Shown one piece after another: positions 1,942 to 63,812 of a stretch of DNA of 64,000 nucleotides. Under the pieces are notes generated by a model. It was not told the origin of the DNA, did no database searches, and saw only the letters and a program-made list of their open reading frames with translations. How positions within the stretch are numbered: position 1 is the first letter of the stretch; each line of letters begins with the position of its first letter. The stretch comes from Actinomycetes bacterium (GTDB taxonomy: Bacteria > Actinomycetota > Thermoleophilia > BMS3ABIN01): the NCBI GenBank assembly GCA_021790115.1, contig JAJYIM010000003.1:16602-80601 (forward strand), read 5' to 3'. Position numbers and translations under genes: made by a program.

Positions 1942-1990
1942 TATGGCAGATACTGGATACCGGATGCTGGATACTGGATAAACCGAGAAT
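1942..1990 (-). repeat. heptamer-tandem intergenic element copy B (reverse orientation), between metK and priA
   Basis: Reverse complement reads GGTTTATCCAGT ATCCAGC ATCCGGT ATCCAGT ATCTGCC. 7-nt periodicity. Confidence 0.6.
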
Positions 1991-2141
1991 CGGTCACCGG
2001 AAGGGCCCTATCCTTCTCGAGGTTTATGCTGAGCTTCGCGAAGCGCTCGGGATGAGAAGCCAATCATATGTTGAAATGGCGCCGGCCGGCGCCATTTTCA
2101 TGTGTGCCGTTGACGTCCGCGCCGCGGGTTATAATGATGGC

Positions 2142-4412
2142 ATGAATTCTGCTTCAGGGACTGCCGGCGTCCATATTCAGATCAAGACCCGTTCTCTGGA
2201 TAAGCCGTTCCACTATAGCGTGCCCTCTCGCCTGAGAGGCAAGTTGACGAAGGGCTCGGTAGTGCTAGTGCGGTTCGGCCGCCAGTGGGCACTGGGAATT
2301 GTGACATCGCTGGAGGTTTTACCAGGTCTGCCTCCGGCAAAGCTGGTTGATATTGAAGACATTGTAGACTATCCGGCCATCCCGGCCGCACTGATTGATC
2401 TGGCCCTTTGGATCTCCGAGTACTATTATTGCTCACCCGCTGCGGCCCTGGGGTTGACTTTGCCACCGGGTGGCTTGCCGGGCCTGAAGCGAGCTGAAAA
2501 TGGCGGTTATTTGCTGAAGGCAGCGCCGATTAAACCAAAAACCGCCAGGTTTGTACGCCTGACGGAGCCACGAGCCAATGAGGCGGGGGAGGGGAAGGCG
2601 CAGCGCCGCGTTCTGGATGTTCTTAACGATGCCGGAGATCTGCCACTGGCGGAGCTCCGCGGCCGGGCAGGGGTGAGCGCCTCGCCGGTACAGACACTGG
2701 CGCGCCGCGGACTGGTCGAGATTTACGAGACAAAAATCAGCCGCAGCTGGTCTCGCTATTACAGCGGCAAGCCGGGCGGGAGCGGGCAGGACACCGCTGA
2801 CATGAGGCCGCTTAAGCTGAACCCTCCCCAGCGGGCGGCGCTGAAGGCCATCGCCGCCCGTCTGGAAGAGCCGGATGAGCGTCAGCGGAGCCGCCCGATA
2901 CTCCTGCAAGGGGTAGCGGGAGCAGGCAAGACCGAGGTTTATATTCGTGGCATTGAGGCCGCGGTGAAACTTGGCGGATCGGCCATAATCCTGGTGCCGG
3001 AAATATCACTTACGCATCAGTTGATCAAACGCCTGCAGAGGCGGTTTGGCCTGCGCGTCGGAGTTTACCACAGCGCCCTTGGTTTCGGTGAGCGCTTTGA
3101 TGAATACTCGCGCATCCGGGCCGGAGAAGTTGACGTGGTCGTCGGCCCCCGCTCGGCTCTGTTTGCACCCCTGCCTCACTTGAAGCTGATCATTATTGAC
3201 GAGGAGAACGACAGCTCATTCAAGCAGGAAAACGACCCCCGTTACGACGCCCGCCGGGTAGCGCTGCAACGGGCACGGCTGGAGGGCGCGGTGTTGGTTT
3301 ATGGCACCGCCACTCCCAGCCTGGAGAGCTATTTCCGCGTGCGCGACCGCTACATTCTTCCGGAGCGGGCGACTGGAGCGGCGATGCCCGAGGTGGAAAT
3401 TGTTGACATGCGCAAGGAGAATGACATGGTATTCAGCCGTCGGCTGTTGGACGGCATAAACGCGGCGGTCGGCGCCGGTGAAAAGGTAATCCTGTTGCTT
3501 AACCGCCGCGGCTACGCCAGCTACCTGCAATGCAGTCATTGTGGTCATGTTTGGGAATGCGGTAACTGTGATGTTTCGTTAACTATTCATGCTCGTGCGC
3601 GAATGCTGCTCTGTCATCACTGCGGCGCCAGTGAGCCGCTGCCGCATACCTGCCCGGTTTGCGGCTCAGCCGGACTGCGGCGCTGGGGGGTGGGCACAGA
3701 ACGCCTGGAGGAAGAGCTCAGGCGCCGCTTTCCCGAAGCTCCCGTTTACCGCCTGGATGCAGACACTTCCCAGGGGTATGGCGAAGGCCCGCGCATTCTG
3801 GAAAAATTCGGCAGCCCCGGCGCCGCCGTGCTGCTGGGCACACAGATGGTGGCCAAGGGGCACCACTTTCCTGCCGTCACCCTGGCGGCAGTCATCAATG
3901 CCGATCTGGCTTTGCAGTTCCCGGAATTTAGGGCTGAAGAGCAGACTTTTGCCATTTTAATGCAGCTGGCAGGCCGCAGCGGCCGCGCCGACAAGCCGGG
4001 AAAAGTCCTGATCCAGACGTGGAATGCGGACATTGATTGTATTAAAATGGCCGCGAACCAGGCAGTTAACGAGTTTTACCAGGCAGAGCTTGAGCGCCGC
4101 CGGCGGTTGAGTTATCCGCCTTATATCAACCTGATTAACGTTATCTGTTTGTCGCGCAGTAACGGCCGGCCACGCCAGGCGGCTGAGTTTCTGAAGCAAA
4201 AGCTCGCGGCTGCCGCGGACGGGGAAAAGCTGCTGGGGCCGGCCGACTTGTTTCGCCTGCAGGGTTGGTCACGCAGTCAAATTTTGGTAAAGACATGTAA
4301 CATAGAGCGTTGCTTAGCCGCCTTCAGGCCTGTAGTCGAGAAATTCCGGCAGCCTTTTTCTGCAAAGGGAATCAGGATTGTGGTTGATGTGGATCCTCAA
4401 TGGCTGTCATGA
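2142..4412 (+). CDS. priA: primosomal protein N' (replication restart helicase PriA)
   Basis: Walker A GVAGAGKTEVYI, DEEN(H)-box IIIDEENDSSF, Cys4 zinc-binding cluster CSHCGHVWECGNC...CHHCG...CPVCG, ~760 aa. Alternative upstream start at 2052. Confidence 0.85.
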   Translation: MNSASGTAGVHIQIKTRSLDKPFHYSVPSRLRGKLTKGSVVLVRFGRQWALGIVTSLEVLPGLPPAKLVDIEDIVDYPAIPAALIDLALWISEYYYCSPAAALGLTLPPGGLPGLKRAENGGYLLKAAPIKPKTARFVRLTEPRANEAGEGKAQRRVLDVLNDAGDLPLAELRGRAGVSASPVQTLARRGLVEIYETKISRSWSRYYSGKPGGSGQDTADMRPLKLNPPQRAALKAIAARLEEPDERQRSRPILLQGVAGAGKTEVYIRGIEAAVKLGGSAIILVPEISLTHQLIKRLQRRFGLRVGVYHSALGFGERFDEYSRIRAGEVDVVVGPRSALFAPLPHLKLIIIDEENDSSFKQENDPRYDARRVALQRARLEGAVLVYGTATPSLESYFRVRDRYILPERATGAAMPEVEIVDMRKENDMVFSRRLLDGINAAVGAGEKVILLLNRRGYASYLQCSHCGHVWECGNCDVSLTIHARARMLLCHHCGASEPLPHTCPVCGSAGLRRWGVGTERLEEELRRRFPEAPVYRLDADTSQGYGEGPRILEKFGSPGAAVLLGTQMVAKGHHFPAVTLAAVINADLALQFPEFRAEEQTFAILMQLAGRSGRADKPGKVLIQTWNADIDCIKMAANQAVNEFYQAELERRRRLSYPPYINLINVICLSRSNGRPRQAAEFLKQKLAAAADGEKLLGPADLFRLQGWSRSQILVKTCNIERCLAAFRPVVEKFRQPFSAKGIRIVVDVDPQWLS

Positions 4413-7317: not shown

Positions 7318-7518
7318 AGGTCCGAAAGGACATAAACCGGAAAGGACTACGCCATGGAAAATCTTATCACGAGTACCAGCAAGACTACAGCAACCCTCGA
7401 CCTGACCCTGCTGATCCGCGGCAGGATCAGACAGTCCATCGAGAACATCCTTTATGAGGAACTGGCCATCGCCTTAGGAGCCGATAAATCCGAACGCACA
7501 GATGAGCGAAAGGGCTGC

Positions 7519-9917: not shown

Positions 9918-11552
9918 TCACCGGCCGGCGGCCGGCTCAAAGCGGCAATCCGTGACGGGCTCGGCGGCCAGGCTTCCGGGCAACGACGTGGGATTTGGCC
10001 AGGCGCAGCCGCCCCGGGCCAGCAGCACTTCAGCATTCTGTGGGCCCATTGTGCCGGCGGCATAATTGGGAAAATCATCAGCCGGCAGGGATTGCCAATA
10101 CTCAAGAACGGGCGTCAGAATCGTCCAGGCAGCCTCCACCTGATCGGCGCGCATGAAAATGGTGGCGTCGCCCATCATCAAATCCCAAAGCAGGGTTTTG
10201 TAGGCATCCGGCAATGGCTCGCGGAAGGCGTCCCCGTAATTGAAATGCATGCTTACCGGCTGCAGGATAAGCTGCGCCCCCGGCTTCTTTGCCTGGAATC
10301 TCAAGGATATTCCTTCCTGCGGCTGAATGCAGAGAACCAGCGCCGCCGGCAGCCAGTTGCCGGCGGCCTCGGGAGGGAAAGATTGATGCGGCACCTGGCG
10401 AAAATGAATCACGATTTCCGACACCTGCTGGGCCAGCCGCTTGCCCGTGCGCAGGTAAAAGGGCACGTCTTGCCAGCGCCAATTGTCAACAAACAACTTC
10501 ATGGCGGCAAATGTTTCCGTGTTTGAGTCAGGGGCTACGCCCGGCTCCTGCCGGTATCCCGGCACCTGCTTGCCGTTGATTGTCCCGGCCCCGTACTGGC
10601 CGCGCGTCGCGAACTCCCAGACGGAATTTGACGGAATCTGGCGCACAGCGTGCAGAACGTCAACTTTCTTGTTCCGCAGCTCATCGGCGTCGAAGGAAAC
10701 AGGCGGCTCCATCGCAATCAGGCAAAGCAGTTGCAGCAGATGATTTTGCACCATGTCGCGCAGGGCGCCGGCGCCCTCGTAATAGCCGCCGCGGCGCTCC
10801 AATCCCACCTGCTCAGCCACTGTAATGGTGACGTAGTCAATATAGCGGCGGTTCCAGACAGGCTCGAACAAGACATTGGCAAACCGCAGGGCGAGGATGT
10901 TGCGCACGGTCTCCTTGCCCAGGTAATGGTCAATCCGGAATATCTGCGGCTCGTCAAACCTGCTTGAGATGGTGTGGTTGATTTCAAGCATCGATTTGAG
11001 ATCATGCCCGATAGGTTTTTCCACCAGGATGCGTGATTGCTTTCTTTTGCGGGCCAGCCGGGCCTTGCCCAGCATGTCGGCGATGACGCCGAAGAAACGG
11101 GGGGGAGTGGCGAGGTAAAAAATGCTGAGCGCCTTGCGCTCCCACTTTCTTTCCAGCCGGTCGAGGCGGTCCGCCAGTTGCGCAAATGCTTGTTTATTGG
11201 TAAAGTCCGCCCTAAAGTAACTAAAATGGCTGCCGAACTCTTTCCAGTCTTTCCCCCGGAGTTGGTGCTGGGCAAAGCGCTTGGCCCCGCTCCGGAACCG
11301 CTCCAGCAGCTCGTCTTCTCTGATCTGGACTGCGTCTACGATGACAATGGCAAAATAATCAGGCAGGCAGCCATCCTTAAAGAGGTCAAACAGCGCCGGC
11401 ACCAGCTTGCGCCAGGCCAGGTCGCCGGCCCCGCCGAAGATCACGAGCACGGTGGGCTCAGACGGCGGTTGATAGGAAGAAAGACCCGTTAGCGCGACTG
11501 CAGCTGACCCTTTTCGCTTTTGTGCTCTTGCTTGTGTTTTGACGGTTTGCAT
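9918..11552 (-). CDS. zwf: glucose-6-phosphate 1-dehydrogenase
   Basis: VIFGGAGDLAWRKLVPALFDL (dinucleotide-binding motif), RIDHYLGKE (substrate/catalytic motif), 544 aa. Lies 25 nt after nuoN and 21 nt before cydA on the same strand. Confidence 0.9.
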   Translation of the reverse strand: MQTVKTQARAQKRKGSAAVALTGLSSYQPPSEPTVLVIFGGAGDLAWRKLVPALFDLFKDGCLPDYFAIVIVDAVQIREDELLERFRSGAKRFAQHQLRGKDWKEFGSHFSYFRADFTNKQAFAQLADRLDRLERKWERKALSIFYLATPPRFFGVIADMLGKARLARKRKQSRILVEKPIGHDLKSMLEINHTISSRFDEPQIFRIDHYLGKETVRNILALRFANVLFEPVWNRRYIDYVTITVAEQVGLERRGGYYEGAGALRDMVQNHLLQLLCLIAMEPPVSFDADELRNKKVDVLHAVRQIPSNSVWEFATRGQYGAGTINGKQVPGYRQEPGVAPDSNTETFAAMKLFVDNWRWQDVPFYLRTGKRLAQQVSEIVIHFRQVPHQSFPPEAAGNWLPAALVLCIQPQEGISLRFQAKKPGAQLILQPVSMHFNYGDAFREPLPDAYKTLLWDLMMGDATIFMRADQVEAAWTILTPVLEYWQSLPADDFPNYAAGTMGPQNAEVLLARGGCAWPNPTSLPGSLAAEPVTDCRFEPAAGR

Positions 11553-11577
11553 TTTCCTTCCTTGTCTCGAGGAGCTG

Positions 11578-13005
11578 TTATTTCAGGGCGGCCGTCTTCT
11601 GTATCATGTCAATCAACGGCGCAGGATAAACACCCAGCCAGAAAATCACCGCCAGCAGCGCCGTCAGCATCAGGCTGCCGGCCCAGGGACAGGAAGCGGT
11701 GGCCTCGCCTGAGCTTGCCCCGCGCGGCCGCATGTACATCACCACGACCAGCCGCAGATAATAATAAAGGCTGATGCCGCTGCCGGCCACGAGCGAAAAG
11801 ACAAGCAGCCACAGCGATGAGCCCACGCCCGCGTCCAGCAGGTAGAACTTGCCGATAAAACCGGCTGTCAGCGGGATCCCTGCCAATGAAAAAAGCATGG
11901 CGGCAAATATCGCCGCCAGCCAGGGGCGGCGCCAGAAAAGCCCGCGGTAATCTTCCACGGCGTCTGCTTCGCGGCCGCGGCAAGGCGTCATCCCTACCAC
12001 TCCAAACGCACCCAGCGTTGTCGCCGTATAGGCAGACAGGTAAAAAGTGACGGCGGTGATGGCAAGGGGGCCGCTGGCCAGAAAAGCAACCAACAGATAA
12101 CCGAGATGAGCAATAGAAGAATATGCCAGAATCCTTTTTACGTTGTCCTGAGTTAGCGCCAGCAAATTACCGGCCAGCATTGAGGCAATGGCAATCAGCG
12201 CAAACATCAGAAACAGGTGCGCCTGCGGCCGGATGCCGACCTGGCTGAAGAACCTCAGCGCCAGGGCAAAGACGCCAACCTTGGAAACCGTGGCCACAAA
12301 CGCTGTCACCGGCGCCGGCGCTCCCTGATAAACATCCGCAGTCCACATGTGAAACGGCACCAACGCCAGCTTGAAACCAAGGCCAACCGCGAGCAAACCA
12401 AGGCCGGTTGTAAACAAGACACCGGCGTTCGCATCGGCTAAAGCCGCCATGCGGGAAAACTGCATGGTTCCTGTTTGATCATAAATGAAAGCCATGCCAA
12501 AAAGAAGAACAGAAGTTGATACCGAAGCCAAAATCAGGTACTTGACACCGGCTTCAATATTAAGGCGGCCGCGCGGGTAAGCAATCAGGATAAAGAGGGA
12601 TGAGCTGAGCAGCTCCAGCCCCAGGAACAGCGAAGCAAAGTGGCTGCTGGCGGCCATGACGGCGGCGCCAAGGGCGGCCAGCAGCAGCAGCAGGTAAAGT
12701 TCCTCCTGTTGCCCCTGCTGTTTGCGCAGATAGACAAAGGAAAAAACTGCCACAACAAACGTTGCCGCCAGGATGACGCCGGTATAAAACAGGGCGTAGC
12801 CGTCAACAACAAGGAGCGAGGTTACCCGGCGCGGGCCGCTACCAGCCGCCAACGGCAGCATCGCGGCGGCGGCCGTCAGCCCTGCCAGTGTGATCAGCAA
12901 GACCAGGATGTGGCTGCGGTAAACCGAAACCGCCAGCATGATCAGGACCACAGTTGCGGCAAGCACCGTCAGCGGCAACAGCGAGATAAAATCCTGGCCG
13001 CTCAA
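11578..13005 (-). CDS. nuoN: NADH-quinone oxidoreductase subunit N
   Basis: 14-TM antiporter-like subunit, last gene of the nuo block. Overlaps the nuoM stop. Confidence 0.85.
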   Translation of the reverse strand: MSGQDFISLLPLTVLAATVVLIMLAVSVYRSHILVLLITLAGLTAAAAMLPLAAGSGPRRVTSLLVVDGYALFYTGVILAATFVVAVFSFVYLRKQQGQQEELYLLLLLAALGAAVMAASSHFASLFLGLELLSSSLFILIAYPRGRLNIEAGVKYLILASVSTSVLLFGMAFIYDQTGTMQFSRMAALADANAGVLFTTGLGLLAVGLGFKLALVPFHMWTADVYQGAPAPVTAFVATVSKVGVFALALRFFSQVGIRPQAHLFLMFALIAIASMLAGNLLALTQDNVKRILAYSSIAHLGYLLVAFLASGPLAITAVTFYLSAYTATTLGAFGVVGMTPCRGREADAVEDYRGLFWRRPWLAAIFAAMLFSLAGIPLTAGFIGKFYLLDAGVGSSLWLLVFSLVAGSGISLYYYLRLVVVMYMRPRGASSGEATASCPWAGSLMLTALLAVIFWLGVYPAPLIDMIQKTAALK

Positions 13006-29825: not shown

Positions 29826-30401
29826 TTGCGCATTCTTGCCATGCCGGCAATTTTCCTGCTTGTGCTGCTTTCCGGCGGAGCCAGCAACATTGCGATGGCA
29901 ATTTTTCTGGCGGCGGCCCTAACAGACTTCCTCGATGGCCGCCTGGCGCGGCTAACCGGCACCGTCACCGAGCTGGGCAAATCACTCGATCCCGTAGCTG
30001 ACCGGATTTTTGTCGGCGGCACAATTATCGCCCTGACGGTTTCCGGCAGATTGCCGGTTCCCGGCATGGCTTTAATCGCTGTCCGGGATATCTCCATGAT
30101 TGTTGGGTATAAACTGTTCAAGCGCCGCGGCGTCATCATCAGGGTATCCAGACTGGGTAAGACTTACACGGCCGTGTTGATGCTCGCGGTGACGATGGCT
30201 CTGGCCGACATCGGCCCCGGGCGCTGGCATGCGGCTGTTTTCGGGATCTGGCCCTGGCTGTTTTGGGCCGGCGTTGGCGGCTCTTTGTTAACGGGCGCCG
30301 CCTATCTGTCAAAGGCATTTAAGAGCCTGCCCCGGCGGGCTGCTCGCGACGAGGTGGCGGCAAGCTTGGGCAAACGGCAGGAGAAAAGCCGGGGCGGTTG
30401 A
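29826..30401 (+). CDS. CDP-alcohol phosphatidyltransferase family protein (candidate eukaryote-like cardiolipin synthase / PgsA-like)
   Basis: CAP motif D-x2-DG-x2-AR-x8-G-x3-D-x3-D: ALTDFLDGRLARLTGTVTELGKSLDPVADR. 191 aa, ~5 TM. Confidence 0.8.
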   Translation: MRILAMPAIFLLVLLSGGASNIAMAIFLAAALTDFLDGRLARLTGTVTELGKSLDPVADRIFVGGTIIALTVSGRLPVPGMALIAVRDISMIVGYKLFKRRGVIIRVSRLGKTYTAVLMLAVTMALADIGPGRWHAAVFGIWPWLFWAGVGGSLLTGAAYLSKAFKSLPRRAARDEVAASLGKRQEKSRGG

Positions 30402-30605: not shown

Positions 30606-33119
30606 ATGAAGGCGGTAGTGATGGCCGGGGGAGAGGGCACGAGGCTGCGGCCGCTCACCAGCAACCAGCCCAAGCCCATGGTCCCCATCGTGAATAAGCC
30701 GTGCATGGAGCACATCATCGAGTTGTTGAAGCAGCACGGCCTCAACGACATCGTTGTCACCGTTGCCTTCCTACCTCAAAGCGTGCGCGCCTATTTCGGC
30801 GACGGCACTTCTCTGGGCGTCTCCATTGCATATTCCGTGGAGGAAAGCCCCCTTGGGACAGCAGGCAGTGTCCGCAACGCCGCCGAGCACCTTGACGAGA
30901 CTTTTATCGTCATCAGCGGCGACGCCCTCACGGACTTCAATCTTGGCGAGATCATAAATTTTCATAACAGCAAGCAGTCACTGATCACGATCGCCCTGAA
31001 ATCCGTTGAGAATCCGCTTGAGTTTGGCGTTGTTATCATCGATGACGAGAACCAGATCAAACAATTCCTGGAAAAACCCAGTTGGGGCCAGGTTTTTAGC
31101 GATTATGTCAACACCGGCATTTACGTCCTTGAACCGGAGATCTTTGATTATATTCCCGAGGGCGAAAAATATGATTTCAGCCAGCAGTTTTTCCCCAAGA
31201 TGCTGGAGCGGGGCAAGCCAATGTTCGGCTACCCTTGCGACGGCTACTGGCAGGACATCGGTAACGTCAACCAGTACCTGAGGGCAAACCACGACGCGCT
31301 CGACGGCAAAGCGAAATTAAACATCCCCGGAATCAGGCTGCAGGAAAATATTTATATCGGCGAGAAGCTGAATCTTGACAGCCTTGACAACATCCGCGGC
31401 CCGGCACTGATCGGCAATTACGCCAAAATCGATCCGGAAGCGAAGATACAGCCCTATTCCATTTTTGGCAACAACGTCGTTGTCAAGGACAATGCCGAGA
31501 CAGATCATTGCGTCGTTGATTCCAATACCTATATCGGCTCAGGCGCCAAGATAAGCGGCTCCCTCATCGGCAAGAACTGTGAAATCAAGCCAAGCGCCAC
31601 CATTCATGCCAACGCCGCCATCGGCGATGAATGCAGTATTGGCGAGCACAGCATGATTGCCAGCAATGTCAAGATTTATCCCTTCAAGGTGATTGAAGCC
31701 GGCGCCCACGTCTACAGCAGCATTATCTGGGAGTGGCGGGCGCTGAGCACGCTGTTTGGCAAGGATGGCGTTTCCGGCCTGGTGAATGTTGACATCACCA
31801 CGGAGCTGGCGCTGAAGCTGGGTATGGCGTATGGAACAGCTCTTGATAAAGGCGCTCAGGTGACCTGCAGCCGGGATGAGCATCCGGCTTCCCGCATGAT
31901 CAAGCGGGCGATCATCGCGGGGCTTACTTCGACGGGGGTGGGGGTGCGGGACCTCAGGGTAACGCCGGCCGCGGTCAACCGCTTCAGCCTAAAAAGCGGC
32001 CGCGCCGCCGGCGGCATTCATGTGCGGGCGTCAGCCTGGCATCCCGAGCTAATGCAGATCCTCTTCTTCGAGCCGCCGGGAAGTCCAATCTCGCAGGCAA
32101 CCGAGCGCGAGATAGAAAAGTATTACAATCAACATAATTACCGCCGCGCATTTTACTCTGAGATTGGCCAGATTGTCTACCCGGCCCGCTCCACGGAGGA
32201 ATACATCCAGGGCCTGCTCTCCAGTTGGGACACGGACAAGATCCGCTCCCGCGGCTTTCGTTTTTTGCTCGATTACAGTTTCAGCTCCGCCTCGCTGATC
32301 GCCAGCCGCATGCTTTCCAGGCTGGGGGCAGAGATTATCGCCCTGAACGCCTTCCTGGATGAAGATAAAAGTTCAACCATATCATCACGGTATGAGGCCA
32401 GCTCTGGACGCATGCAGAAGCTGGTTCTCTCGGCTGGCGCCGACATGGGAATTACAATCGACAATGCGGCCGAGAAAATATTTCTTGTGGATGAGCATGG
32501 CGCTGAGATATCAACTGAAAAAACCCTGTTCTTGCTGCTCAGGTTGATTGCCGCTTCAGAAGGCAGGGGAAAAATTGCGGTGCCGCTAACAGTGTCACGG
32601 CTGGCCGAGGACCTGGTGGAGGGGACAGGCTGCGAAATACTGAGGACCAAAGTGTCCCAGGCGGCTTTAACCGAGGCGGCTTCCCGGCAGGACGTTATCT
32701 TTGCCGGCGCCATCGGTGGCGATTACATCTTTCCCAGGTTTCTGCCGGCGCAAGACGCGCTGATGAGCATGGGCAAGGTGCTGGAGCTGCTGGCGCTTTC
32801 AGAAAAACCGCTGTCGCAGCTGGTGGCGGATATCCCCGGCACAACCCTGCTGCATGAAACAAAAAGCTGCCCCTGGTCGCTTAAGGGCGCCGCCATGCGG
32901 GAAATTTCTGAAAGCGTTCTGGATGAAGAAAACGTGGACAGGCTGGATGGCGTCAAGGTTTTTTATGACGAGGGCTGGGTGCAGATATTGCCGTCTCCCG
33001 ATGAGCCCCTGTTTGAGATTTTTGCGGAAGGGGACACAGTCGACGATTCCCGTGAGCTGCTGGAGCGTTTTTCAGCCAAGCTCGACGAGGTGATGGCGGC
33101 GCACGAGCAGGAAGTCTAG
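30606..33119 (+). CDS. sugar-phosphate nucleotidyltransferase (GlmU/ManC-like) - left-handed beta-helix - phosphohexomutase(PGM/PMM)-like fusion protein
   Basis: N-terminus [27 protein letters not shown] (NTP-transferase G-loop), hexapeptide-repeat segment (~res 250-380), C-terminal 4-domain phosphohexomutase fold. PMM catalytic motifs look degenerate: TASHNP -> RASAWHP, DGDGDR -> DNAAEK, RPSGTEP -> LPSPDEP. Confidence 0.75.
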
Positions 33120-33141: not shown

Positions 33142-33756
33142 TTAGGACTGTTCTGCGCAGCTAGGCGCCGCCTGCTCTTCCGAGGTTCTGGCAATCACCT
33201 GTTTGCTTATACTTCTTAACGCTTCAAACACTCCTTCACCGGTAAGGGCGCAGGACTCTACCGACGGCGAGCCGGTCTGGTTAAGCAGTTCGTTCAGGTC
33301 CTGGACACGGAAGATATCGGTCAGGTCCCGCTTGTTGTACTGCATCACCAGCCCCAGATCAAGGGGGCTGTCACCCTGGTCTGCGAGATTGTCCCACATG
33401 TTGAGGTACGCTTCCACGTTGTCGTCGAGCCGGTCCAACTGGGAGTCAACCACGAAGACGATGCCGTCAACGCCCTGGATTACCAGCTTGCGGCTGGCGT
33501 TATATTGCGGCTGCCCGGGCACGGTGTACAAATGGAATCTGGTTTTCAGGCCCCGGACCTTATCCAGTGTCAGCGGCAAAAAATCAAAGTAGAGGGTTCT
33601 TTCTTCCTCCGTGGCAATGGAGACGAGCTTGCCTTTCACCTGCGGCGTGATCTTCCTGTAGACGTACTGGATACTCGTGGTTTTGCCGCCGAGGGCGCAG
33701 CCGTAATAGACAATCTTGTAATTGATCTCACCTGCTGCCAGATTAATCAGCGCCAC
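33142..33756 (-). CDS. mglA: MglA-family Ras-like small GTPase
   Basis: MALINLAAGEINYKIVYYGCALGGKTTSIQYVY...TRFHLYTVPGQPQYNASRKLVIQGVDGIVFVVDSQ...QYNKRDL. Very close in pattern to Myxococcus/Thermus MglA (P-loop, Thr switch I, PGQ switch II, NKxD). Start overlaps the upstream roadblock gene. Confidence 0.85.
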   Translation of the reverse strand: MALINLAAGEINYKIVYYGCALGGKTTSIQYVYRKITPQVKGKLVSIATEEERTLYFDFLPLTLDKVRGLKTRFHLYTVPGQPQYNASRKLVIQGVDGIVFVVDSQLDRLDDNVEAYLNMWDNLADQGDSPLDLGLVMQYNKRDLTDIFRVQDLNELLNQTGSPSVESCALTGEGVFEALRSISKQVIARTSEEQAAPSCAEQS

Positions 33757-34300
33757 GGCGTTCTCCTTGGGCGTTAAAAAGTTCGTCGATGGCCTGCCTG
33801 ATCCCTTCGGCGCAGCCCGGCTCCTCGTCCATGCTGCCGGGCTTGTCTGGCAGCATATTGAGGGCCTCGCAAAGGGAGCGGGCCGCCCTTGCGGCTAGCA
33901 GGCGCACCTTGCCTAGTTCTGTGACCCTGCCAAAGCATATCACCAGCAGAACATCCCCGGTAACCTGTTCAATATATACCTTGATTCTGCTTCCTTCCTG
34001 GAACATGACGCTAAAATCGTAGTCGTCCATCATCTGCGTCAGCTGGCGCGTTGCGGCAAATGAACCGGAAGCAAGTGAAGCCAGCGAGTCAATATCGCCC
34101 TTAAACCCCGCAGCAGAGTAATACATTATGGTCTGGCCACTGGTTGTGATCAGGCCCAGAAACTGCGCCAGCAGCTCTTCGCTCAGCTGCCGGAGAACGC
34201 GGTCGGCGGCTTCCAGCTGGGACTTTAAGACTGTTTGGTTTCTGCTCAAAAAATAGCTCCCCAAATTTCGCCTCAAGCGGCGCGGGTTTCCTTTTTGCAA
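33743..34300 (-). CDS. mglB: MglB-like roadblock/LC7-domain protein (GTPase-activating partner of MglA)
   Basis: Roadblock/LC7 fold pattern ...LGLITTSGQTIMYYSAAG...SRIKVYIEQVTGDVLLVICFG... Sits immediately upstream of mglA with a 14-nt overlap (classical mglBA order). TTG start. Confidence 0.7.
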   Translation of the reverse strand: MQKGNPRRLRRNLGSYFLSRNQTVLKSQLEAADRVLRQLSEELLAQFLGLITTSGQTIMYYSAAGFKGDIDSLASLASGSFAATRQLTQMMDDYDFSVMFQEGSRIKVYIEQVTGDVLLVICFGRVTELGKVRLLAARAARSLCEALNMLPDKPGSMDEEPGCAEGIRQAIDELFNAQGERRGAD

Positions 34301-34479
34301 ACGAGGCGCAAAACGACGGGGGGAAATATTTTTTCTCTTTGCCGCCGGCCCGGTTGCTTGCCTTCATTACTGCTATCGGCAATGATGCCGGCCGTCCCTA
34401 GTTCCTCTAAGGGTAAAGTTGAACCTTTGCCCGTGGGAGAATATAATGACATTAAAGTCTGCTGACCCGGGAGGTCAAG

Positions 34480-34749
34480 TTGGTTAATCTACCAGAACTT
34501 TCGAGCCTGTCCGACCAGGACCTTAAAAAAATGATCCATGAGCTCGCTTCCCAGGAACAAGAGCTAAGTTACCAGCGCCGCATTTTACATGGCAAGATCG
34601 ATATTCTCAGGGCCGAGCTGGTTCAAAGGCTTTCCCGGAAAAGGGGAGAGGGGGAATCCTTGATAAACGACGACGATGTGACGATGCTTAGTGAGATTCT
34701 CTCCCGCAGGGAACCTTTTCCCATGGGCGGCACGCCCAGCGGCAAATAA
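34480..34749 (+). CDS. hypothetical small coiled-coil protein (89 aa)
   Basis: TTG start with a GGGAGG RBS 5 nt upstream. Heptad-rich LSDQDLKKMIHELASQEQELSYQRRILHGKIDILRAELVQRL. Divergent from mglBA. Confidence 0.5.
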   Translation: MVNLPELSSLSDQDLKKMIHELASQEQELSYQRRILHGKIDILRAELVQRLSRKRGEGESLINDDDVTMLSEILSRREPFPMGGTPSGK

Positions 34750-34926
34750 CGCCGCTGACCGCAGCCGGTGGTTCGCAAAAAGGCGGCGGCACTATGCCGG
34801 GCTTTGAGATAGGCTCCAGGATCCATACCACTAAGAATCTGTCTCGAAAGGTTGTTCGCAGCGAGGCCGGCCGCAGCAGAATATATGCCTTTTGAGATAG
34901 ATTCTAAAGAGAAAAGGGGAGTTGCT

Positions 34927-35181
34927 GTGCCCGACCGAGTTATCCCGGCAATTGAGAGGCTTTTTAAGGACCTTGGCGTTGAAGTAGTCGAAGAAAGGGT
35001 CCTTCATTTTGTCATCCAGGAAATACATGACGGCAAAACACTGGCAGAGGCTCTGGAAGAGCCCTACGTAAAAAATAACACCACTGCCGCCTGGCGGCGC
35101 CAGGTGCTTGAGCGGCCCCAGCTGGTCAAGGCGGTCGAGGAAGAAATTCAGAAGTCATTTAAAGCGCGCGGCGGCGGGTAA
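34927..35181 (+). CDS. hypothetical small acidic protein (~84 aa from GTG; ORF open from 34852)
   Basis: AAAGGGGAG RBS 7 nt before the GTG. VPDRVIPAIERLFKDLGVEVVEERVLHFVIQEIHDGKTLAEALEE... Precedes the FHA gene by 5 nt. Confidence 0.4.
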   Translation: MPDRVIPAIERLFKDLGVEVVEERVLHFVIQEIHDGKTLAEALEEPYVKNNTTAAWRRQVLERPQLVKAVEEEIQKSFKARGGG

Positions 35182-35186
35182 GATTC

Positions 35187-35654
35187 ATGACCAGGGTCTA
35201 TTGTCAAGAATGCGGCTACCGGAACACAGCAGAGGGCAAGTACTGCAGCAAATGCGGGGCGCTGCTGCCGGAAGCAGACGCCGGCTCGGAAACGACGATC
35301 AGGTTCTCTCCCGAGGCAGATGAAGAGCCGGACACCGCCGAGGTCGGTGAAATCACCAGCGAGGGCGTTTCCCTGGTTGTCCGCAGCGGCGGCGGCATGG
35401 CCGGAGAAAGTTTTAGCCCACAGAAAGATGAAACCACTATCGGCCGCCATCCCGACAGCGATATTTTCCTCGATGACATTACCGTCTCGCGGAGGCATGC
35501 GCTGCTGATTCATAAAAGCGGCGGATACTTTATCCAGGACCGCGGCAGCCTGAACGGCACCTATGTCAACCGGGTGCGGGTCGAGACCCAGAAGCTTTCT
35601 GATGGCGACCAGCTTCAGATTGGAAAGTACAAGCTAACGTTTATCGAGCGATGA
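35187..35654 (+). CDS. zinc-ribbon + FHA-domain protein
   Basis: N-terminal CQECGYRN...CSKCG zinc ribbon. C-terminal FHA core TTIGRHPDSDIFLDDITVSRRHALL...GSLNGTYVNRVRV. 155 aa. Confidence 0.85.
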   Translation: MTRVYCQECGYRNTAEGKYCSKCGALLPEADAGSETTIRFSPEADEEPDTAEVGEITSEGVSLVVRSGGGMAGESFSPQKDETTIGRHPDSDIFLDDITVSRRHALLIHKSGGYFIQDRGSLNGTYVNRVRVETQKLSDGDQLQIGKYKLTFIER

Positions 35655-36370
35655 TCAGCCAGCAAGGCGGGAAGGGCGCGCCATCAAAACCCTTGACTAT
35701 CGGCGCTGTCGTCAATCTGCTAAAGCCCGACTTCAACAACGTTAGCATTAGCAAGATTCGCTACCTTGAAGACGAAAAACTGATATCACCCCGGCGGACG
35801 CCCGGAGGCTACCGCCTTTTTTCCAAGGCTGACATCGAGCGATTGCGCACGGTGCTCACCCTTCAACGCGATGAATTTCTGCCGCTCAAGGTTATCCGTC
35901 AGGAGCTTTCCCGGAAAGGAACGGTGGCCGTCCGGCCTGCCGGCACCCGCCGCTTTAAAAAAATCAGCCTGCAAACACCGGCTTCTGAATCCCGCTCCTA
36001 CACCCTCGATGAGGCCCTGGAAACAGCAGGAGCAGATGCCAAATTGGTCAGGGAGCTTGAGGATTATGGCCTGATTGCCGGCGTCTCGGAAGGCGGCGTC
36101 AAACACTACGATCAGACGGACGTGGAAGTAATGGCGGCTGCTTCGGATCTGGCCCGCTATGGCGTCGCTGCCAGGAATCTGCGCACACTCAAAAGCTCTG
36201 TTGACCGCGAATCTTCTTTGTTGTTACAAATACTTGCGCCGGCGCTGCACTCCCGGAATCCACAGGCGCGCAAACAGGCAATTGCGGCGCTGGAGAATTT
36301 GGCAACTGTCTCTTCCCACCTTAAGCACCTGCTGTTGATCAAAGACTTGCGGAATTTTACCTCCGGTTGA
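35651..36370 (+). CDS. MerR-family transcriptional regulator (FHA-associated, Rv1828-like)
   Basis: N-terminal MerR HTH LTIGAVVNLLKPDFNNVSISKIRYLEDEKLISPRRTPGGYRLFSKADIERL. Start overlaps the FHA gene stop. 239 aa. Confidence 0.8.
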   Translation: MISQQGGKGAPSKPLTIGAVVNLLKPDFNNVSISKIRYLEDEKLISPRRTPGGYRLFSKADIERLRTVLTLQRDEFLPLKVIRQELSRKGTVAVRPAGTRRFKKISLQTPASESRSYTLDEALETAGADAKLVRELEDYGLIAGVSEGGVKHYDQTDVEVMAAASDLARYGVAARNLRTLKSSVDRESSLLLQILAPALHSRNPQARKQAIAALENLATVSSHLKHLLLIKDLRNFTSG

Positions 36371-36419: not shown

Positions 36420-36935
36420 ATGGACCTTGCCGCCAGAATTCGCGACATACCCGATTTCCCCAAAAAAGGCATCATTTTTAAAGACATTACGCCGCTGCTT
36501 CAAGATGCGGAATCGCTCCGTTATGCCGTAGATCAGATGGCCGAGTTTGGAGTGGGGAGGAAGGTTGACATTGTCCTTGGGGCTGAGGCCAGGGGGTTTA
36601 TCCTGGGCGCGACGCTCGCTTACACGCTGGGGGCGGGTTTTGTGCCGGCCAGAAAGCCGGGAAAGCTGCCGTTCACCACAGTGGCCACGGAATACGAGCT
36701 GGAATACGGCACCGACAGCCTGGAAATTCACGAGGACGCCATCAGGCCCGGGAGCCGCGTGCTTGTACACGACGACCTGCTGGCCACCGGGGGCACCGCC
36801 AGGGCCAAATGCGACCTGGTCGAAAAGCTGGGCGGAGAAGTAGTGGGGCTCGCTTTCATCATCGAGCTTTCATTTCTGAGCGGCAGGGAAAAGCTGAAAG
36901 ACTACGACCTGCTCAGCCTGGTAAAAGTGGCGTAG
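36420..36935 (+). CDS. apt: adenine phosphoribosyltransferase
   Basis: PRPP-binding motif VLVHDDLLATGGTARA, full-length Apt similarity. 171 aa. Confidence 0.9.
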   Translation: MDLAARIRDIPDFPKKGIIFKDITPLLQDAESLRYAVDQMAEFGVGRKVDIVLGAEARGFILGATLAYTLGAGFVPARKPGKLPFTTVATEYELEYGTDSLEIHEDAIRPGSRVLVHDDLLATGGTARAKCDLVEKLGGEVVGLAFIIELSFLSGREKLKDYDLLSLVKVA

Positions 36936-37011: not shown

Positions 37012-38082
37012 TTAGTCATAGATTTCCGCCGTCACGTAACCGATGCCATCCAGCCCCAACGACTGGGCGGCGGCGTAAGAGAGGTCAAGGATGCGGCCGC
37101 CGACGTACGGTCCGCGGTCGTTTATCCTGACAAAAACTGAGCGGCCGTTGAAGCTGACCTTCAGCCAGGTTCCAAAAGGCAGGGTCTTGCTGGCCGCCGT
37201 GTATGCGTACATGTTGTAAGTCTCGCCGCTGGCGGTGCTCTGACCGTTAAAGCCGGGCCCATACCAGCTGGCCACTCCGGCCAGGGTTATGCCCGAGGGC
37301 TTTAGACCGGATGGCGGGCTATCGCCAACATCAATTGTTGCCGGGCCTGTTCCCGTTGCTGGCCCGGCAGTAGGGGCGACCCGCCGGGTCGCTCCTTCTT
37401 CTCGCGCCTGTGCCTGGGCCAGTGCGGCAGTGGCGGCGTTGATATTGTACAGATCGGCATCTATTTTGGCCTGCAGTTGCTCTTTTTGCGCCTCCAGTCC
37501 GGCAAGGTTTGCGGCGCTGTCCTGTTTAAGCGCATCGACCTGTTTTTGAAGCGCCCGCACCTCTTCAGCCTGCGACTTAACCCTGTCAACAAGCTTTTGG
37601 TCATTTTCAGAAATGGTCGCCAGGTAAGAAAAACGGGAAAGGGCATCCGCGAAGCTTTCACTTGACAAAATCACTGAATAGGCGTCATCATTGCCGAGCT
37701 TGTAGATGGCCGACAGCCTGCCATTAAACATATTTAATGAGTTGTAATAAGCGTTCTCAGCTTCGTCAAGGCGGTCATTGGCATCCGCCAGCTGAAGCCG
37801 GCGCTGACCCAGGTATTGCTCGGCGTCGGCGATATTCAGGTCCAGCACCGCCATCTGCGAGCGGTCCTGCGCCAGCGCCACTTGCTGATATTCAATCCTG
37901 GCGGCAATATCGGCTGAACTTGCCTGGGAAGAACCGGTTCCAACCGAATTGTCCGGAAGCTGCTGAGCCAGTGACAAAGAGGCAACCGTGAATGTAAACG
38001 CAGCTGCAATTATTGCGGCGAGCAGCACCTTGCTTAATTTTCCTGTGCAGATGTTTTTCAAATTATGAGGACCGTTAACCAC
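37012..38082 (-). CDS. secreted coiled-coil protein with C-terminal RlpA-like double-psi beta-barrel (DPBB) domain
   Basis: N-terminal TM/signal (LLAAIIAAAFTFTV), long coiled coil (res ~60-230). C-terminal GITLAGVASWYGPGFNGQSTASGETYNMYAYTAASKTLPFGTWLKVSFNGRSVFVRINDRGP...GRILDLSYAAAQSLG matches RlpA/DPBB_1. Confidence 0.75.
   Translation of the reverse strand: MVNGPHNLKNICTGKLSKVLLAAIIAAAFTFTVASLSLAQQLPDNSVGTGSSQASSADIAARIEYQQVALAQDRSQMAVLDLNIADAEQYLGQRRLQLADANDRLDEAENAYYNSLNMFNGRLSAIYKLGNDDAYSVILSSESFADALSRFSYLATISENDQKLVDRVKSQAEEVRALQKQVDALKQDSAANLAGLEAQKEQLQAKIDADLYNINAATAALAQAQAREEGATRRVAPTAGPATGTGPATIDVGDSPPSGLKPSGITLAGVASWYGPGFNGQSTASGETYNMYAYTAASKTLPFGTWLKVSFNGRSVFVRINDRGPYVGGRILDLSYAAAQSLGLDGIGYVTAEIYD
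37368..37395. repeat. second (inverted) copy of the GGGGCGACCCGSCGGGTCGC palindrome, inside the RlpA-like CDS
   Basis: GTAGGGGCGACCCGCCGGGTCGCTCC is the reverse complement of the 36933-36960 copy with 2 mismatches. The two copies bracket the DPBB-coding 3' end of the gene. Confidence 0.5.
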
Positions 38083-61543: not shown

Positions 61544-61563
61544 CCTATTGAAATAGGCTCTAG
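61544..61563. repeat. palindromic CCTATTGAAATAGG(CTCTAG) motif overlapping the stop of the ANTAR regulator gene
   Basis: Perfect 5-N4-5 inverted repeat. Related copies at 53084-53102 (CCTATCGAAATAGGCTCTA) and 30572-30589 (CCTATCGAGACAGGCTCA). Confidence 0.5.
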
Positions 61564-62138
61564 AGGAAATCACTGGTTTCTACTATCATCCCGGCCAACT
61601 GGGCCATCTTCACATTGCGGCAGGAGCTTTGTTTCTGCAGCAGCTTGAAGGCTTCCTCCTCAGAAAGTCCCTGCCGTTTCATGATGATGCCCTTGGCCCG
61701 TTCCACCAATTTCCGCGTTTCCAGCGCCTCCTGCAAGGTGTCCACCTCTTTTCTGAGCCGCTGAAGTTCGCTGAAGCGGGAGGCCGCCAGGGCGATGGCG
61801 GGCCTCAGCGTTGCCTCCATGACGGGCTTTGTCAGGTAAGACGCTACCCCGATTTCATTGGCTTCCTTGACTAAATCTTCTTCGCTAAAGGCAGACAATA
61901 TGATGATCGGCATTGGCGTTTTTGTCAGTATGGCTTTGGCCGCGGCGAGCCCGTCCATTCCCAGCATTTTTATGTCCATGATAGCCAGATCGGGATTTGT
62001 CTTGGCCGCCATGGCGACCGCCTCGGAGCCTGTTTTGGCTTTTCCCACTACCTCATGCCCAAGATGCGCAAGCATCGTCTCCAAACCCATTGCCTCCAGC
62101 GCCTCGTCTTCGGCGATCAGTATTTTAAAGCTTTTCAC
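61560..62138 (-). CDS. ANTAR-domain response regulator (PdtaR/AmiR-like)
   Basis: Receiver domain ILIAEDEALEAMGLE...LAIMDIKMLGMDGL (phospho-acceptor Asp). C-terminal ANTAR ...LVERAKGIIMKRQGLSEEEAFKLLQKQS... 192 aa. Confidence 0.85.
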   Translation of the reverse strand: MKSFKILIAEDEALEAMGLETMLAHLGHEVVGKAKTGSEAVAMAAKTNPDLAIMDIKMLGMDGLAAAKAILTKTPMPIIILSAFSEEDLVKEANEIGVASYLTKPVMEATLRPAIALAASRFSELQRLRKEVDTLQEALETRKLVERAKGIIMKRQGLSEEEAFKLLQKQSSCRNVKMAQLAGMIVETSDFL

Positions 62139-62186
62139 GGCTAAGCGTCTCCCCCGCCCTGTTGACTAACTGGCGCACGTAAGCGT

Positions 62187-63812
62187 TCAGGCAGGAAGAG
62201 GGAGGCGGATGTCTGCTTTACAACCATTGTCAAAACTGATATCCCAGTCGCCACCCAGATCGTCCCTGACTAGATTATTAATGATCTGCGTACCCAGGCC
62301 CTGCCCGGACGTCGCTTTGGGGCCGGTTGATTCCGAGCCTGTGTCTCTGTAACCAATTCTTATTATATCATTGCTTTCTCTATTGAAAAAAATAGAGACA
62401 TGTCCTCCCTGCCCGCCGAAACCATGTTTCATGCTGTTGATGATCAGCTCATTAATGATAATAGCCAGCGAGGTCGCCAGCTTTGCCGGCAGCTTGAATT
62501 CGGGTCCCCGGACCTCGAGCCCGATTTCGGCGGCGCTGTTTGCCGCAACCGTTGAGAGGGCAACCTGCCGGATCATGTTTACGATTTCAACATCGCTATT
62601 GGTCTTGCCTGTCAGCAGGCGCTGCACCTGAGCGATGCTGTTAATTCTGGTGAGATTGTCCCCGATCACTTTGATCGCCTCTGGGCTGTCCGATTTGATG
62701 AGCTGCATTGACAAAACCGAACTGAGGGCGGCGAGGTTATTGGCAATCCGGTGCTGGGTCTCCATCAGCAGGGTTGCCATCTGATCACTGCGCTGCTTTT
62801 CGAGGCTGATCTCTCTAGACATATTATTAAAGTTATCGGACAAAACCGACAACTCATCCCGCCGTTTTTGTGGCGGCAAATTGATGGCCTCGCCGGCGGC
62901 CATGCGCTGGCTCGCCTCTGTAATTCTTTCAACAGGACGGCTGACCAGGCGCGCCAGGTAATGGGCGATGAAGAGCCCGATGGAAAGAGCAGCGACGACC
63001 AGGCCCAGCAGGGGGCTATTGGAACCGGAGCTGCCCTGAGCGGGCTCCTCAACCACCAGCGCCGCTGCCGTCTTGCCGCTCAAACCGGCCAGCGGATAAA
63101 AGCCCTTTCTCAGTGAAGTTCCGGCGGCAGAAGTCGTCCTGGCTATTGTTTGGCCTTGAGCAAGGGCATTAAGATCCTGACCGGAAAGCGGAAAAATGGC
63201 AACCGCGGGACCATTCCAATGCGCGCCATCCAAGAAAATCCAATAGGCGCGGTCCGGGCCTCCTTTGATTACGTCGACGGCTGAGGAAGCATCAACCGAT
63301 ACGGACAGAAGGCCTACGGTTGCCCCTCCATTCTTGACTGGCGAAAGCACCGTCGCTTGCGGTCTTCCGTCTTTTACGGTCAGGCCGGAATAAGCGCGGC
63401 CGCTTTGCAACGATGACAGGCCCAAGGCATTAAAATAAGCGTTTACATCAGTTATATAGGAAGCCACTGCCCTGTCGGGAATCGCCCTGCCGTCGCTGCC
63501 GGTTGCCGGACCCATTGCCACAACTCCCCGGCTGGCGATGTCTGCCATGACGTTCGGCGTTTCGGCCGCCAGGTTGACGACCGCAAGCGACCGTTCCAGG
63601 CGCCGGTCGAACTCCTGCTTCACCACGTTATATGATTCGTCCATCCTCAAGGAACTTTCTTGCGCGCTCCTGTCTCCAGCCTGATTGAACGAGTAAAAAG
63701 AAGCAAGGGCGAGAATCACCGAAGCCAAAGCCAGGTATGAAAGCATCAGCTTCAGATGGAGCGGAAAAAAGCGCCTTCGCATCAGGGGAACCGACTGCAT
63801 CGTGAGGCTCAA
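62187..63812 (-). CDS. membrane sensor histidine kinase with HisKA_2-type H-box (PdtaS-like kinase core), extracytoplasmic sensor domain and HAMP
   Basis: H-box THRIANNLAAL (HisKA_2), HATPase_c ...IINELIINSMKHGF...GQGLGTQI... N-terminal TM, ~250-aa periplasmic region, second TM and HAMP-like linker. Adjacent to the ANTAR RR. 541 aa. Confidence 0.8.
   Translation of the reverse strand: MSLTMQSVPLMRRRFFPLHLKLMLSYLALASVILALASFYSFNQAGDRSAQESSLRMDESYNVVKQEFDRRLERSLAVVNLAAETPNVMADIASRGVVAMGPATGSDGRAIPDRAVASYITDVNAYFNALGLSSLQSGRAYSGLTVKDGRPQATVLSPVKNGGATVGLLSVSVDASSAVDVIKGGPDRAYWIFLDGAHWNGPAVAIFPLSGQDLNALAQGQTIARTTSAAGTSLRKGFYPLAGLSGKTAAALVVEEPAQGSSGSNSPLLGLVVAALSIGLFIAHYLARLVSRPVERITEASQRMAAGEAINLPPQKRRDELSVLSDNFNNMSREISLEKQRSDQMATLLMETQHRIANNLAALSSVLSMQLIKSDSPEAIKVIGDNLTRINSIAQVQRLLTGKTNSDVEIVNMIRQVALSTVAANSAAEIGLEVRGPEFKLPAKLATSLAIIINELIINSMKHGFGGQGGHVSIFFNRESNDIIRIGYRDTGSESTGPKATSGQGLGTQIINNLVRDDLGGDWDISFDNGCKADIRLPLPA

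Follow-up and report, generated by a model that had tools for sequence, protein, structure and literature searches.

A canonical MglB-MglA pair beside rsiG in Thermoleophilia, probably a polarity switch with type IV pilus output

Characterised systems of the small GTPase MglA and its roadblock/LC7 partner MglB come from Myxococcus, Bdellovibrio, and Thermus, and the actinobacterial side is represented by conservon GTPases only (PMC4316618, PMC13343842). What would such a pair do in an actinobacterial genome, with no motility gene in sight? The pair in question, mglB and mglA, lies in a stretch of 64,000 nt (the window), which makes up 64 of the 122.9 kb of one contig from an uncultured Thermoleophilia bacterium (Actinomycetota). 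The original prediction read it as an MglAB module that may be wired to cell-envelope or division polarity. By its motifs, the GTPase is a bona fide Group 1 MglA paired with MglB. A large Thermoleophilia clade has inherited the pair, always beside rsiG, an anti-sigma factor gene, and the pair probably forms a canonical polarity switch that acts on the type IVa pilus.

All ORFs of the original prediction are present at the coordinates it gave. The mglA gene (33142-33756, minus strand) encodes a protein of 204 aa. Its start codon is GTG, with an AAGGAG ribosome-binding site (RBS) 6 nt upstream. A phmmer search of PDB with the protein matches MglA of M. xanthus at 1.3e-62 and MglA of T. thermophilus at 2.2e-60; the best non-MglA chain is an Arf at 6e-06. 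Group 1 MglA is defined by an intrinsic arginine finger next to the threonine of G2 and by TVPGQ, rather than DxxGQ, as its G3 motif (PMC4316618). In the window protein, arginine finger R53 stands beside G2 residue T54 within EERTLYFD, G3 reads T78VPGQ82, and G4 reads N141KRD144. All three features (R53-T54, TVPGQ, and NKRD) are found in 81 of the 81 sequences of the MglA motif table. The P-loop at residues 19-27 is GCALGGKTT, exactly as first read, and the search results and motifs bear out the claim of an MglA-like rather than a generic Ras-like protein. The length, the P-loop, and the positions of R53-T54, T78VPGQ82, and NKRD are those of the M. xanthus and T. thermophilus proteins.

Pfam contains no MglA model, and the window protein scores only weak Arf and Ras matches there. 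No MglA-specific match is obtained from Pfam or NCBIfam. PGAP labels MCL6107006.1, an orthologue that shares its 90% cluster, "ADP-ribosylation factor-like protein". Owing to this Arf-like name and the missing MglA-specific match, Group 1 MglA in these metagenome-assembled genomes (MAGs) is invisible to keyword searches.

The mglB gene is located immediately upstream of mglA and overlaps it by 14 nt, in the canonical order that had been predicted. This order is also seen in all 80 other loci compared. Its open reading frame (ORF) is readable from a TTG at 34300, but the likely start is the TTG at 34249, which has a GGGGAG RBS 7 nt upstream and gives a roadblock/LC7 protein of 168 aa (33743-34249, minus strand), the likely GTPase-activating protein (GAP) of MglA. 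The public gene call begins at 34264 and gives 173 aa, and orthologue alignments of the ORF begin only at residue 17-18. From these three observations, the product is probably 168-173 aa long, near the ~160 aa of solved MglBs. A PDB search returns eight significant matches, all of them MglB chains (1e-11 to 6e-09, residues 29-176), and the alignment reaches into the C-terminal helix. The Pfam Robl_LC7 score is just under its cutoff (22.7 bits vs 23). The NCBIfam MglB equivalog NF052242 scores 55.1 bits (9.3e-15) against a cutoff of 200. Since that model is Thermus-specific, the sub-cutoff score lowers equivalog-level naming, not family membership.

Relatives were collected by scanning one genome per species, which gave more than 560 matches to MglA. 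The 77 best (64-92% identity) make up the actinobacterial set. All are MAGs labelled Thermoleophilia, Gaiellales, Actinomycetes, or Actinomycetota, with a few labelled just "bacterium". The next matches, at 56-57%, belong to Desulfuromonadota, Eisenbacteria, and Proteobacteria. In a neighbour-joining tree built from MglA plus MglB, the actinobacterial sequences are monophyletic relative to three outgroups (Desulfuromonadota, Eisenbacteria, and Proteobacteria). The window and its ten closest relatives (L002-L011), referred to as the window's subclade, form one deep branch. A 2014 survey found Group 1 in about a dozen phyla, with Actinobacteria not among them and represented only in Groups 2 and 5 (PMC4316618). 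In a 2026 paper on actinobacterial G-protein systems, conservons are the only ones discussed.

The neighbourhood of the pair is also conserved. When window proteins were compared with all loci by tblastn, the common order was apt <- ftsR <- zinc ribbon-FHA gene <- (acidic protein gene) <- rsiG / mglB -> mglA -> <- NTP-transferase/PGM fusion gene. It is kept in essentially every actinobacterial locus with enough flank, or ~70 of 77 loci. The distance between mglBA and rsiG/gcvH-garA-ftsR is 0.2-1.3 kb, and this holds down to 64% MglA identity and ~40% FtsR identity. The gap between rsiG and mglB is empty in the window's subclade, is filled by a 214-aa DUF4388/PATAN gene in ~33 loci, or contains gcvH, at times with a short PATAN gene. 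The M. xanthus and T. thermophilus systems share with this one the mglB-mglA order, the MglB alignment into the C-terminal helix, and, in relatives of the window, a nearby PATAN gene. They differ in that the host here is actinobacterial and the pair is fixed beside rsiG and the garA-ftsR operon.

The gene beside mglB, rsiG (34480-34749, plus strand), encodes 89 aa. The original prediction described its product as a coiled-coil protein; the ORF is real, but the protein is RsiG rather than a generic coiled-coil. Pfam RsiG (PF22802) matches it at 6.6e-19 and 67.8 bits, against a cutoff of 27, and the PDB matches are RsiG of Streptomyces venezuelae (5.7e-12) and of Rubrobacter radiotolerans (1.1e-07). 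The cyclic di-GMP (c-di-GMP) motif E26-x3-S-x2-R-x3-H-x3-D41 is intact, with EQELSYQRRILHGKID at residues 26-41. Of 75 orthologues, 74 have the motif, in the His form in 64 and in the Gln form in 10. The protein is thus assigned as a single-motif, c-di-GMP-dependent anti-sigma factor of sigma-WhiG.

RsiGs of this single-motif type are known from just two classes, Rubrobacteria and Thermoleophilia; they homodimerise, bind c-di-GMP, and sequester sigma-WhiG (PMC8325347). The His-variant motif binds c-di-GMP in RsiG of Conexibacter (C. woesei), and in Rubrobacter, of the sister class Rubrobacteria, the RsiG-WhiG switch controls type IV pilus genes and genes for diguanylate cyclases and phosphodiesterases (PMC8325347). 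That study makes no mention of MglA, roadblock proteins, GTPases, FHA, MerR, garA/ftsR context, or synteny. The (RsiG)2-(c-di-GMP)2-sigma-WhiG switch of R. radiotolerans resembles the present case in its single E-x3-S-x2-R-x3-[Q/H]-x3-D motif, here in the His variant as in Conexibacter. Its known output is type IV pili, and pilBTC genes lie near rsiG in sister loci here. It differs from the present case in two ways: no whiG was seen in the window or flanks, and the candidate element in front of mglB matches just the -10 half of the WhiG consensus.

The DNA between rsiG and mglB has diverged within the window's subclade except for three conserved islands. These are the rsiG RBS, TTGAAC-17-TATAAT, and TGCCGATA[A/G/T] on the mglB strand. 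The second is a putative sigma70-type rsiG promoter (34419-34447, plus strand) that agrees with the consensus at 10 of 12 positions and is conserved across the subclade alignment. The third is represented in the window by GCCGATAG (34373-34380, minus strand), a conserved sigma28/WhiG -10-like element upstream of mglB. The island TGCCGATA[A/G/T] is kept in 10 of 10 subclade loci, where 0.025 occurrences per 150 nt are expected from background, and has 0-1 mismatch to the sigma28/WhiG -10 consensus GCCGATAA. A G[AC]CGATA core is found no more than 120 nt upstream of mglB in 45 of 76 loci (0.018 expected per locus), though these loci are related and do not count as independent events. The PATAN subclade has the architecture CTCATG-N14/15-GACGATAC upstream of mglB, and pil-adjacent loci have other conserved elements there.

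The published WhiG promoter criterion requires a -35 TAAA and a -10 GCCGATAA with no more than two mismatches in total, no more than 200 bp from the start codon (PMC8325347). The window element has one mismatch in its -10 GCCGATAG and two in the best -35, three in total. Most subclade loci have 0-1 mismatches at -10 and 2-3 at -35. The strict promoter TAAA-N14-18-GCCGATAA has zero matches in the window. Since only a -10-like core is conserved, a WhiG promoter is not claimed as a result for mglB, though mglBA may have one. A comparison of shared upstream motifs of mglB and pilB was dropped, since pilB abuts aroE and has no intergenic region of its own. Elsewhere in the window, an intergenic site downstream of cydB (7456-7487, plus strand) contains an exact GCCGATAA preceded by GGAACTGG. 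This arrangement resembles GGAACTAGG...GCCGATAG upstream of mglB, and there is no obvious downstream gene on that strand. An Rfam scan for c-di-GMP riboswitches and other RNAs returned a tRNA-Pro only.

No motility gene had been visible to the first reading, and this stands: there is no pil, glt, agl, or fla gene among the 39 larger ORFs annotated in the window, with ORFs at 11.5-26 kb and 46-51 kb outside the scan. A tblastn search of the window for PilB, PilT, and PilC gave no match. Sister lineages differ. PilT (Pseudomonas aeruginosa) and FliA served as tblastn queries, and the matches were confirmed by Pfam and NCBIfam profiles. In 22 loci, 5-7.5 kb from mglA, a PilT with 50-54% identity to the query and a second ATPase were found. 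The genes aroE-pilB-pilT-pilC lie on the other side of the operon in 22-23 sister loci that have the same mglBA/rsiG/garA/ftsR synteny. The order in one of them, L034, is aroE-pilB-pilT-pilC-sigma-apt <- ftsR <- FHA <- acidic <- rsiG <- gcvH <- PATAN / mglB -> mglA. Its PilT scores 504 bits with TIGR01420 (cutoff 319), and its PilC matches T2SSF at 2e-72. Its PilB (834-2612, plus strand) has an N-terminal MshEN domain with the NCBIfam c-di-GMP-binding motif (68 bits vs cutoff 38), a sign that pilus extension may be under direct control by c-di-GMP in these Thermoleophilia. In the tree, the pilBTC loci are a paraphyletic grade at the base of the sister branch, suggesting that the arrangement is old. 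According to the original prediction, a full type IV pilus or gliding apparatus in the genome would make this an ordinary motility switch. For the clade, this is borne out in good part: the motor genes pilB, pilT, and pilC, and only these, were found in sister lineages, and none matched in the window.

A sigma gene next to pilC was considered as the partner of RsiG and ruled out. It is sigmaF/sigmaB-like, scoring 179 bits with TIGR02980 vs 83 with FliA_WhiG, and its PDB matches are sigmaF at 6e-29 vs WhiG at 1e-13. Seven loci have this gene between pilC and apt: L034 (4946-5908, plus strand), L031, L041, L045, L053, L064, and L075.

A PATAN/DUF4388 gene adjoins mglB in ~35 loci. Its products are stand-alone proteins of 136-214 aa with no receiver domain. 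No PATAN gene was found in the window. PATAN neighbours of Group 1 MglA have been noted before (PMC4316618). In cyanobacteria, the PATAN domain contacts the type IV pilus motor, and PATAN regulators bind it in Synechocystis (bioRxiv 10.1101/2021.06.11.447907). The comparison with the cyanobacterial regulators PixG and PixE rests on a PATAN protein encoded beside mglB in these related loci; unlike PixG and PixE, the actinobacterial proteins are stand-alone, have no receiver domain, and are absent from the window's subclade.

On the other side of rsiG, the co-oriented operon continues on the plus strand with an acidic protein gene, a zinc ribbon-FHA gene, ftsR, and apt. The small acidic protein had been predicted from an ORF at 34852-35181, which is real and conserved, with its start moved to ~34927 in line with public calls of 83-90 aa. 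The product (34927-35181) is an all-helical protein of ~84 aa conserved in ~35 loci. It has no Pfam, PDB sequence, or fold match (AlphaFold2 model, pLDDT 87.7). Its gene is always directly upstream of the zinc ribbon-FHA gene, its stop lies 5 nt before the start of that gene, and in L023 (7776-8591, minus strand) the two are in frame with no stop between. Owing to this spacing and the in-frame arrangement, the acidic protein is probably associated with the FHA protein rather than with MglAB. It may be a partner of GarA-type FHA proteins.

The FHA gene (35187-35654) encodes a GarA/OdhI-like protein with an N-terminal zinc ribbon, and the predicted domain pair is found: Pfam FHA at 1.8e-21 and Zn_Ribbon_1 at 3.4e-05. 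The PDB matches are GarA (1.8e-25) and OdhI (4.5e-24). The OdhI equivalog of NCBIfam scores 120.4 bits (4.5e-35), below its cutoff of 200. At the N-terminus, where an ETTS phospho-acceptor motif would be expected of GarA/OdhI, the zinc ribbon is followed by SETTI (residues 34-38). A regular-expression search finds an ETT-type motif in only about one third of the orthologues, and CxxC...CxxC is present in 70 of 73. The next gene, ftsR (35651-36370), overlaps the FHA gene by 4 nt. The Rv1828-like MerR regulator that had been predicted here is FtsR, passing NF050798 (TF_FtsR_Actino) at 217.3 bits vs a cutoff of 150 over 222 of 223 model positions. The last gene is apt (36420-36935), an adenine phosphoribosyltransferase gene (NF002633, 244 bits vs 224) that is syntenic in nearly all loci.

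This operon is also found without mglBA. Two metagenomic contigs of unidentified lineage, L082 and L083, encode more distant RsiG homologues in the order proS-pgsA -> rsiG -> zinc ribbon-FHA -> ftsR. In L082, apt follows, and L083 breaks off within the FHA gene. Neither contig has mglA, mglB, a PATAN gene, or a pil gene near rsiG. The mglBA-free rsiG-garA stretch spans 9328-12074 in L082 and 9313-10738 in L083, with rsiG directly between pgsA and the zinc ribbon-FHA-ftsR genes. Given this placement, the garA-ftsR operon seems to begin with rsiG, and rsiG-garA-ftsR is the wider unit, which mglBA flanks in one clade. The presence of FHA and MerR genes therefore says little about the role of MglAB. 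The genes pgsA...gcvH-garA-ftsR are taken here to correspond to Rv1822-Rv1828 of Mycobacterium tuberculosis, with gcvH-garA-ftsR presumably the pan-actinobacterial Rv1826-1828. The likeness to the gcvH-garA-Rv1828 cluster of Mycobacterium and Corynebacterium lies in an FHA protein nearest to GarA/OdhI, followed by an equivalog-passing FtsR, with gcvH before the FHA gene in sister loci and pgsA upstream. The differences are the zinc ribbon on the FHA protein, the rsiG and acidic protein genes inserted upstream, and the flanking mglBA.

Downstream of mglA, a convergent gene (30606-33119, plus strand) is separated from it by 22 nt. It encodes an 837-aa fusion of a sugar-1-phosphate nucleotidyltransferase (NTP_transferase, 9.8e-59) with a phosphohexomutase (PGM_PMM I-III). 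It adjoins mglA in nearly all loci and is absent from L082 and L083. The fusion also includes a left-handed beta-helix domain and, with the adjacent pgsA, may supply nucleotide sugar for an envelope glycoconjugate. In subclades other than that of the window, a gene of ~577 aa lies between mglA and the fusion gene (L021, ~10624-12300, minus strand; L034, 10659-12392, minus strand), and its C-terminal sequence is VanW-like by eye. The pgsA-like gene (29826-30401, plus strand; PF01066, 4.7e-28) encodes a CDP-alcohol phosphatidyltransferase at the edge of the conserved actinobacterial backbone and directly abuts rsiG in L082 and L083.

The RlpA-like, MurT, and GatD genes that had been listed as cell-wall neighbours were confirmed by profile searches, and they are syntenic only within the window's own subclade. 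The RlpA-family protein (37012-38082, minus strand) combines a double-psi beta-barrel (DPBB) lytic transglycosylase with an N-terminal PcsB-like coiled-coil, an unusual combination whose gene is syntenic only within this subclade. The window flanks encode housekeeping functions: SAM synthetase, PriA, cytochrome bd, pentose-phosphate enzymes, ProRS, IspG, Dxr, an RseP-like protease, Tsa, and PanC. At 61560-63812 (minus strand), a HAMP/HisKA_2 histidine kinase is followed by an ANTAR response regulator, forming an RNA-binding antitermination two-component pair.

A polar mechanism, a pilus output, and control of mglBA by sigma-WhiG and c-di-GMP are predicted by analogy with characterised homologues. 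MglA-GTP would mark one pole, and MglB, as the GAP, would clear MglA-GTP from the other. The switch would give the type IVa pilus motor (PilB/PilT/PilC) its polarity, as its counterparts do in Myxococcus, Thermus, and Bdellovibrio. The same pilus machine would be acted on by c-di-GMP through RsiG/sigma-WhiG, at the level of pil expression, and in relatives also through the MshEN-type PilB. The PATAN protein encoded next to mglB in relatives is a possible adaptor between switch and motor. The garA-like FHA gene, ftsR, and apt would form a housekeeping operon that mglBA happens to flank and would not be targets of MglAB.

Several observations weigh against this reading. All of its functional steps are drawn from homologues in other phyla. 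No pil gene was found in the 64-kb window, nor in the flanking DNA of its ten closest relatives. The subclade of the window has no PATAN gene, and whiG was seen neither in the window nor in the flanks of relatives. The sigma gene beside pilC in relatives is sigmaF-like. The element upstream of mglB has no TAAA -35 and falls outside the limit of two mismatches for a WhiG promoter. A pure pilus role also leaves the clade-wide linkage of mglBA to garA-ftsR unexplained.

It is this linkage that gives weight to rewiring of MglAB to division or envelope-growth polarity, in which the pair would act with the FHA protein, FtsR, and cell-wall genes instead of a motility machine. The pair lies within 1.3 kb of the garA-ftsR operon in every Thermoleophilia locus with enough flank, and a linkage so widely kept is often a sign of functional coupling. 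The FtsR score exceeds the equivalog cutoff, RlpA-like, MurT, and GatD genes follow in the window, and no pil genes are near in the window and its ten closest relatives. However, the rsiG-garA-ftsR operon is present without mglBA in L082 and L083, the cell-wall genes are syntenic in one subclade only, and pilBTC and PATAN genes occur in the same neighbourhood of sister clades. RsiG, for its part, has type IV pili as a known output. Characterised Group 1 MglA proteins act in motility, type IV pilus formation, or predation, and a division role is not described (PMC4316618, PMC13343842). The step from missing motility genes to division wiring is thereby undercut and is not supported, although the unexplained linkage leaves the idea some weight; it is considered rather doubtful.

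Slightly more credible, and still unlikely, is that MglAB switches another polar function, such as adhesion, DNA uptake via pili, secretion, or gliding, with its position beside rsiG-garA-ftsR a frozen accident that means nothing for regulation. Group 1 MglA genes are found in widely differing surroundings, and their effectors tend to be encoded at other sites (PMC4316618). Consistent with this, no effector gene is identifiable among the annotated ORFs of the window, and the mglB promoter element has only a tentative sigma-factor assignment. Against it, pilBTC, PATAN, and RsiG are three independent neighbours that point to type IV pili and c-di-GMP in relatives, and a linkage kept in so many of the 77 loci is hard to ascribe to chance. 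The remaining alternative is a degenerate conservon, a CvnD GTPase with a CvnB roadblock protein that would regulate gene expression. In Actinomycetota, the small-GTPase systems on record are conservons (PMC4316618, PMC13343842), and the window pair shares with CvnA-D an actinobacterial host and a small GTPase with a roadblock/LC7 partner. CvnD belongs to Group 2, which lacks the arginine and has NxFD at G4 (PMC4316618), whereas the window GTPase has the arginine finger, TVPGQ, which Group 2 also lacks, and NKRD; on motifs it sides with MglA, not with CvnD. There is no adjacent CvnA-type histidine kinase or CvnC, the neighbours being the NTP-transferase/PGM fusion gene and rsiG, and the identity to Myxococcus MglA is far above what is expected of CvnD. 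A conservon identity is rejected on motifs and neighbourhood and is considered extremely improbable. A canonical polarity switch acting on the type IVa pilus is therefore favoured, with moderate confidence.

A bolder extension places everything in one c-di-GMP circuit. RsiG would free sigma-WhiG to transcribe both mglBA, from the CGATA-core element, and the pil genes, and the switch would be physically and regulatorily coupled to the GarA/FtsR metabolic and division operon in these early-branching, conventionally Gram-positive Actinobacteria. This is speculative and, on present evidence, improbable. If true, one conserved region of the chromosome would coordinate the polarity of pili with the state of the cell cycle.

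The clade-wide presence of canonical MglAB in Thermoleophilia extends the switch to a phylum absent from Group 1 in the 2014 survey, and public annotation hides it. What is new is the phylum; the type of system and the mechanism are both known. The adjacency of rsiG, together with pilBTC with an MshEN-type PilB and PATAN proteins in relatives, suggests that c-di-GMP and a Ras-like switch may converge on one type IV pilus in basal Actinobacteria. The finding is relevant to bacterial polarity, type IV pili, and actinobacterial c-di-GMP signalling.

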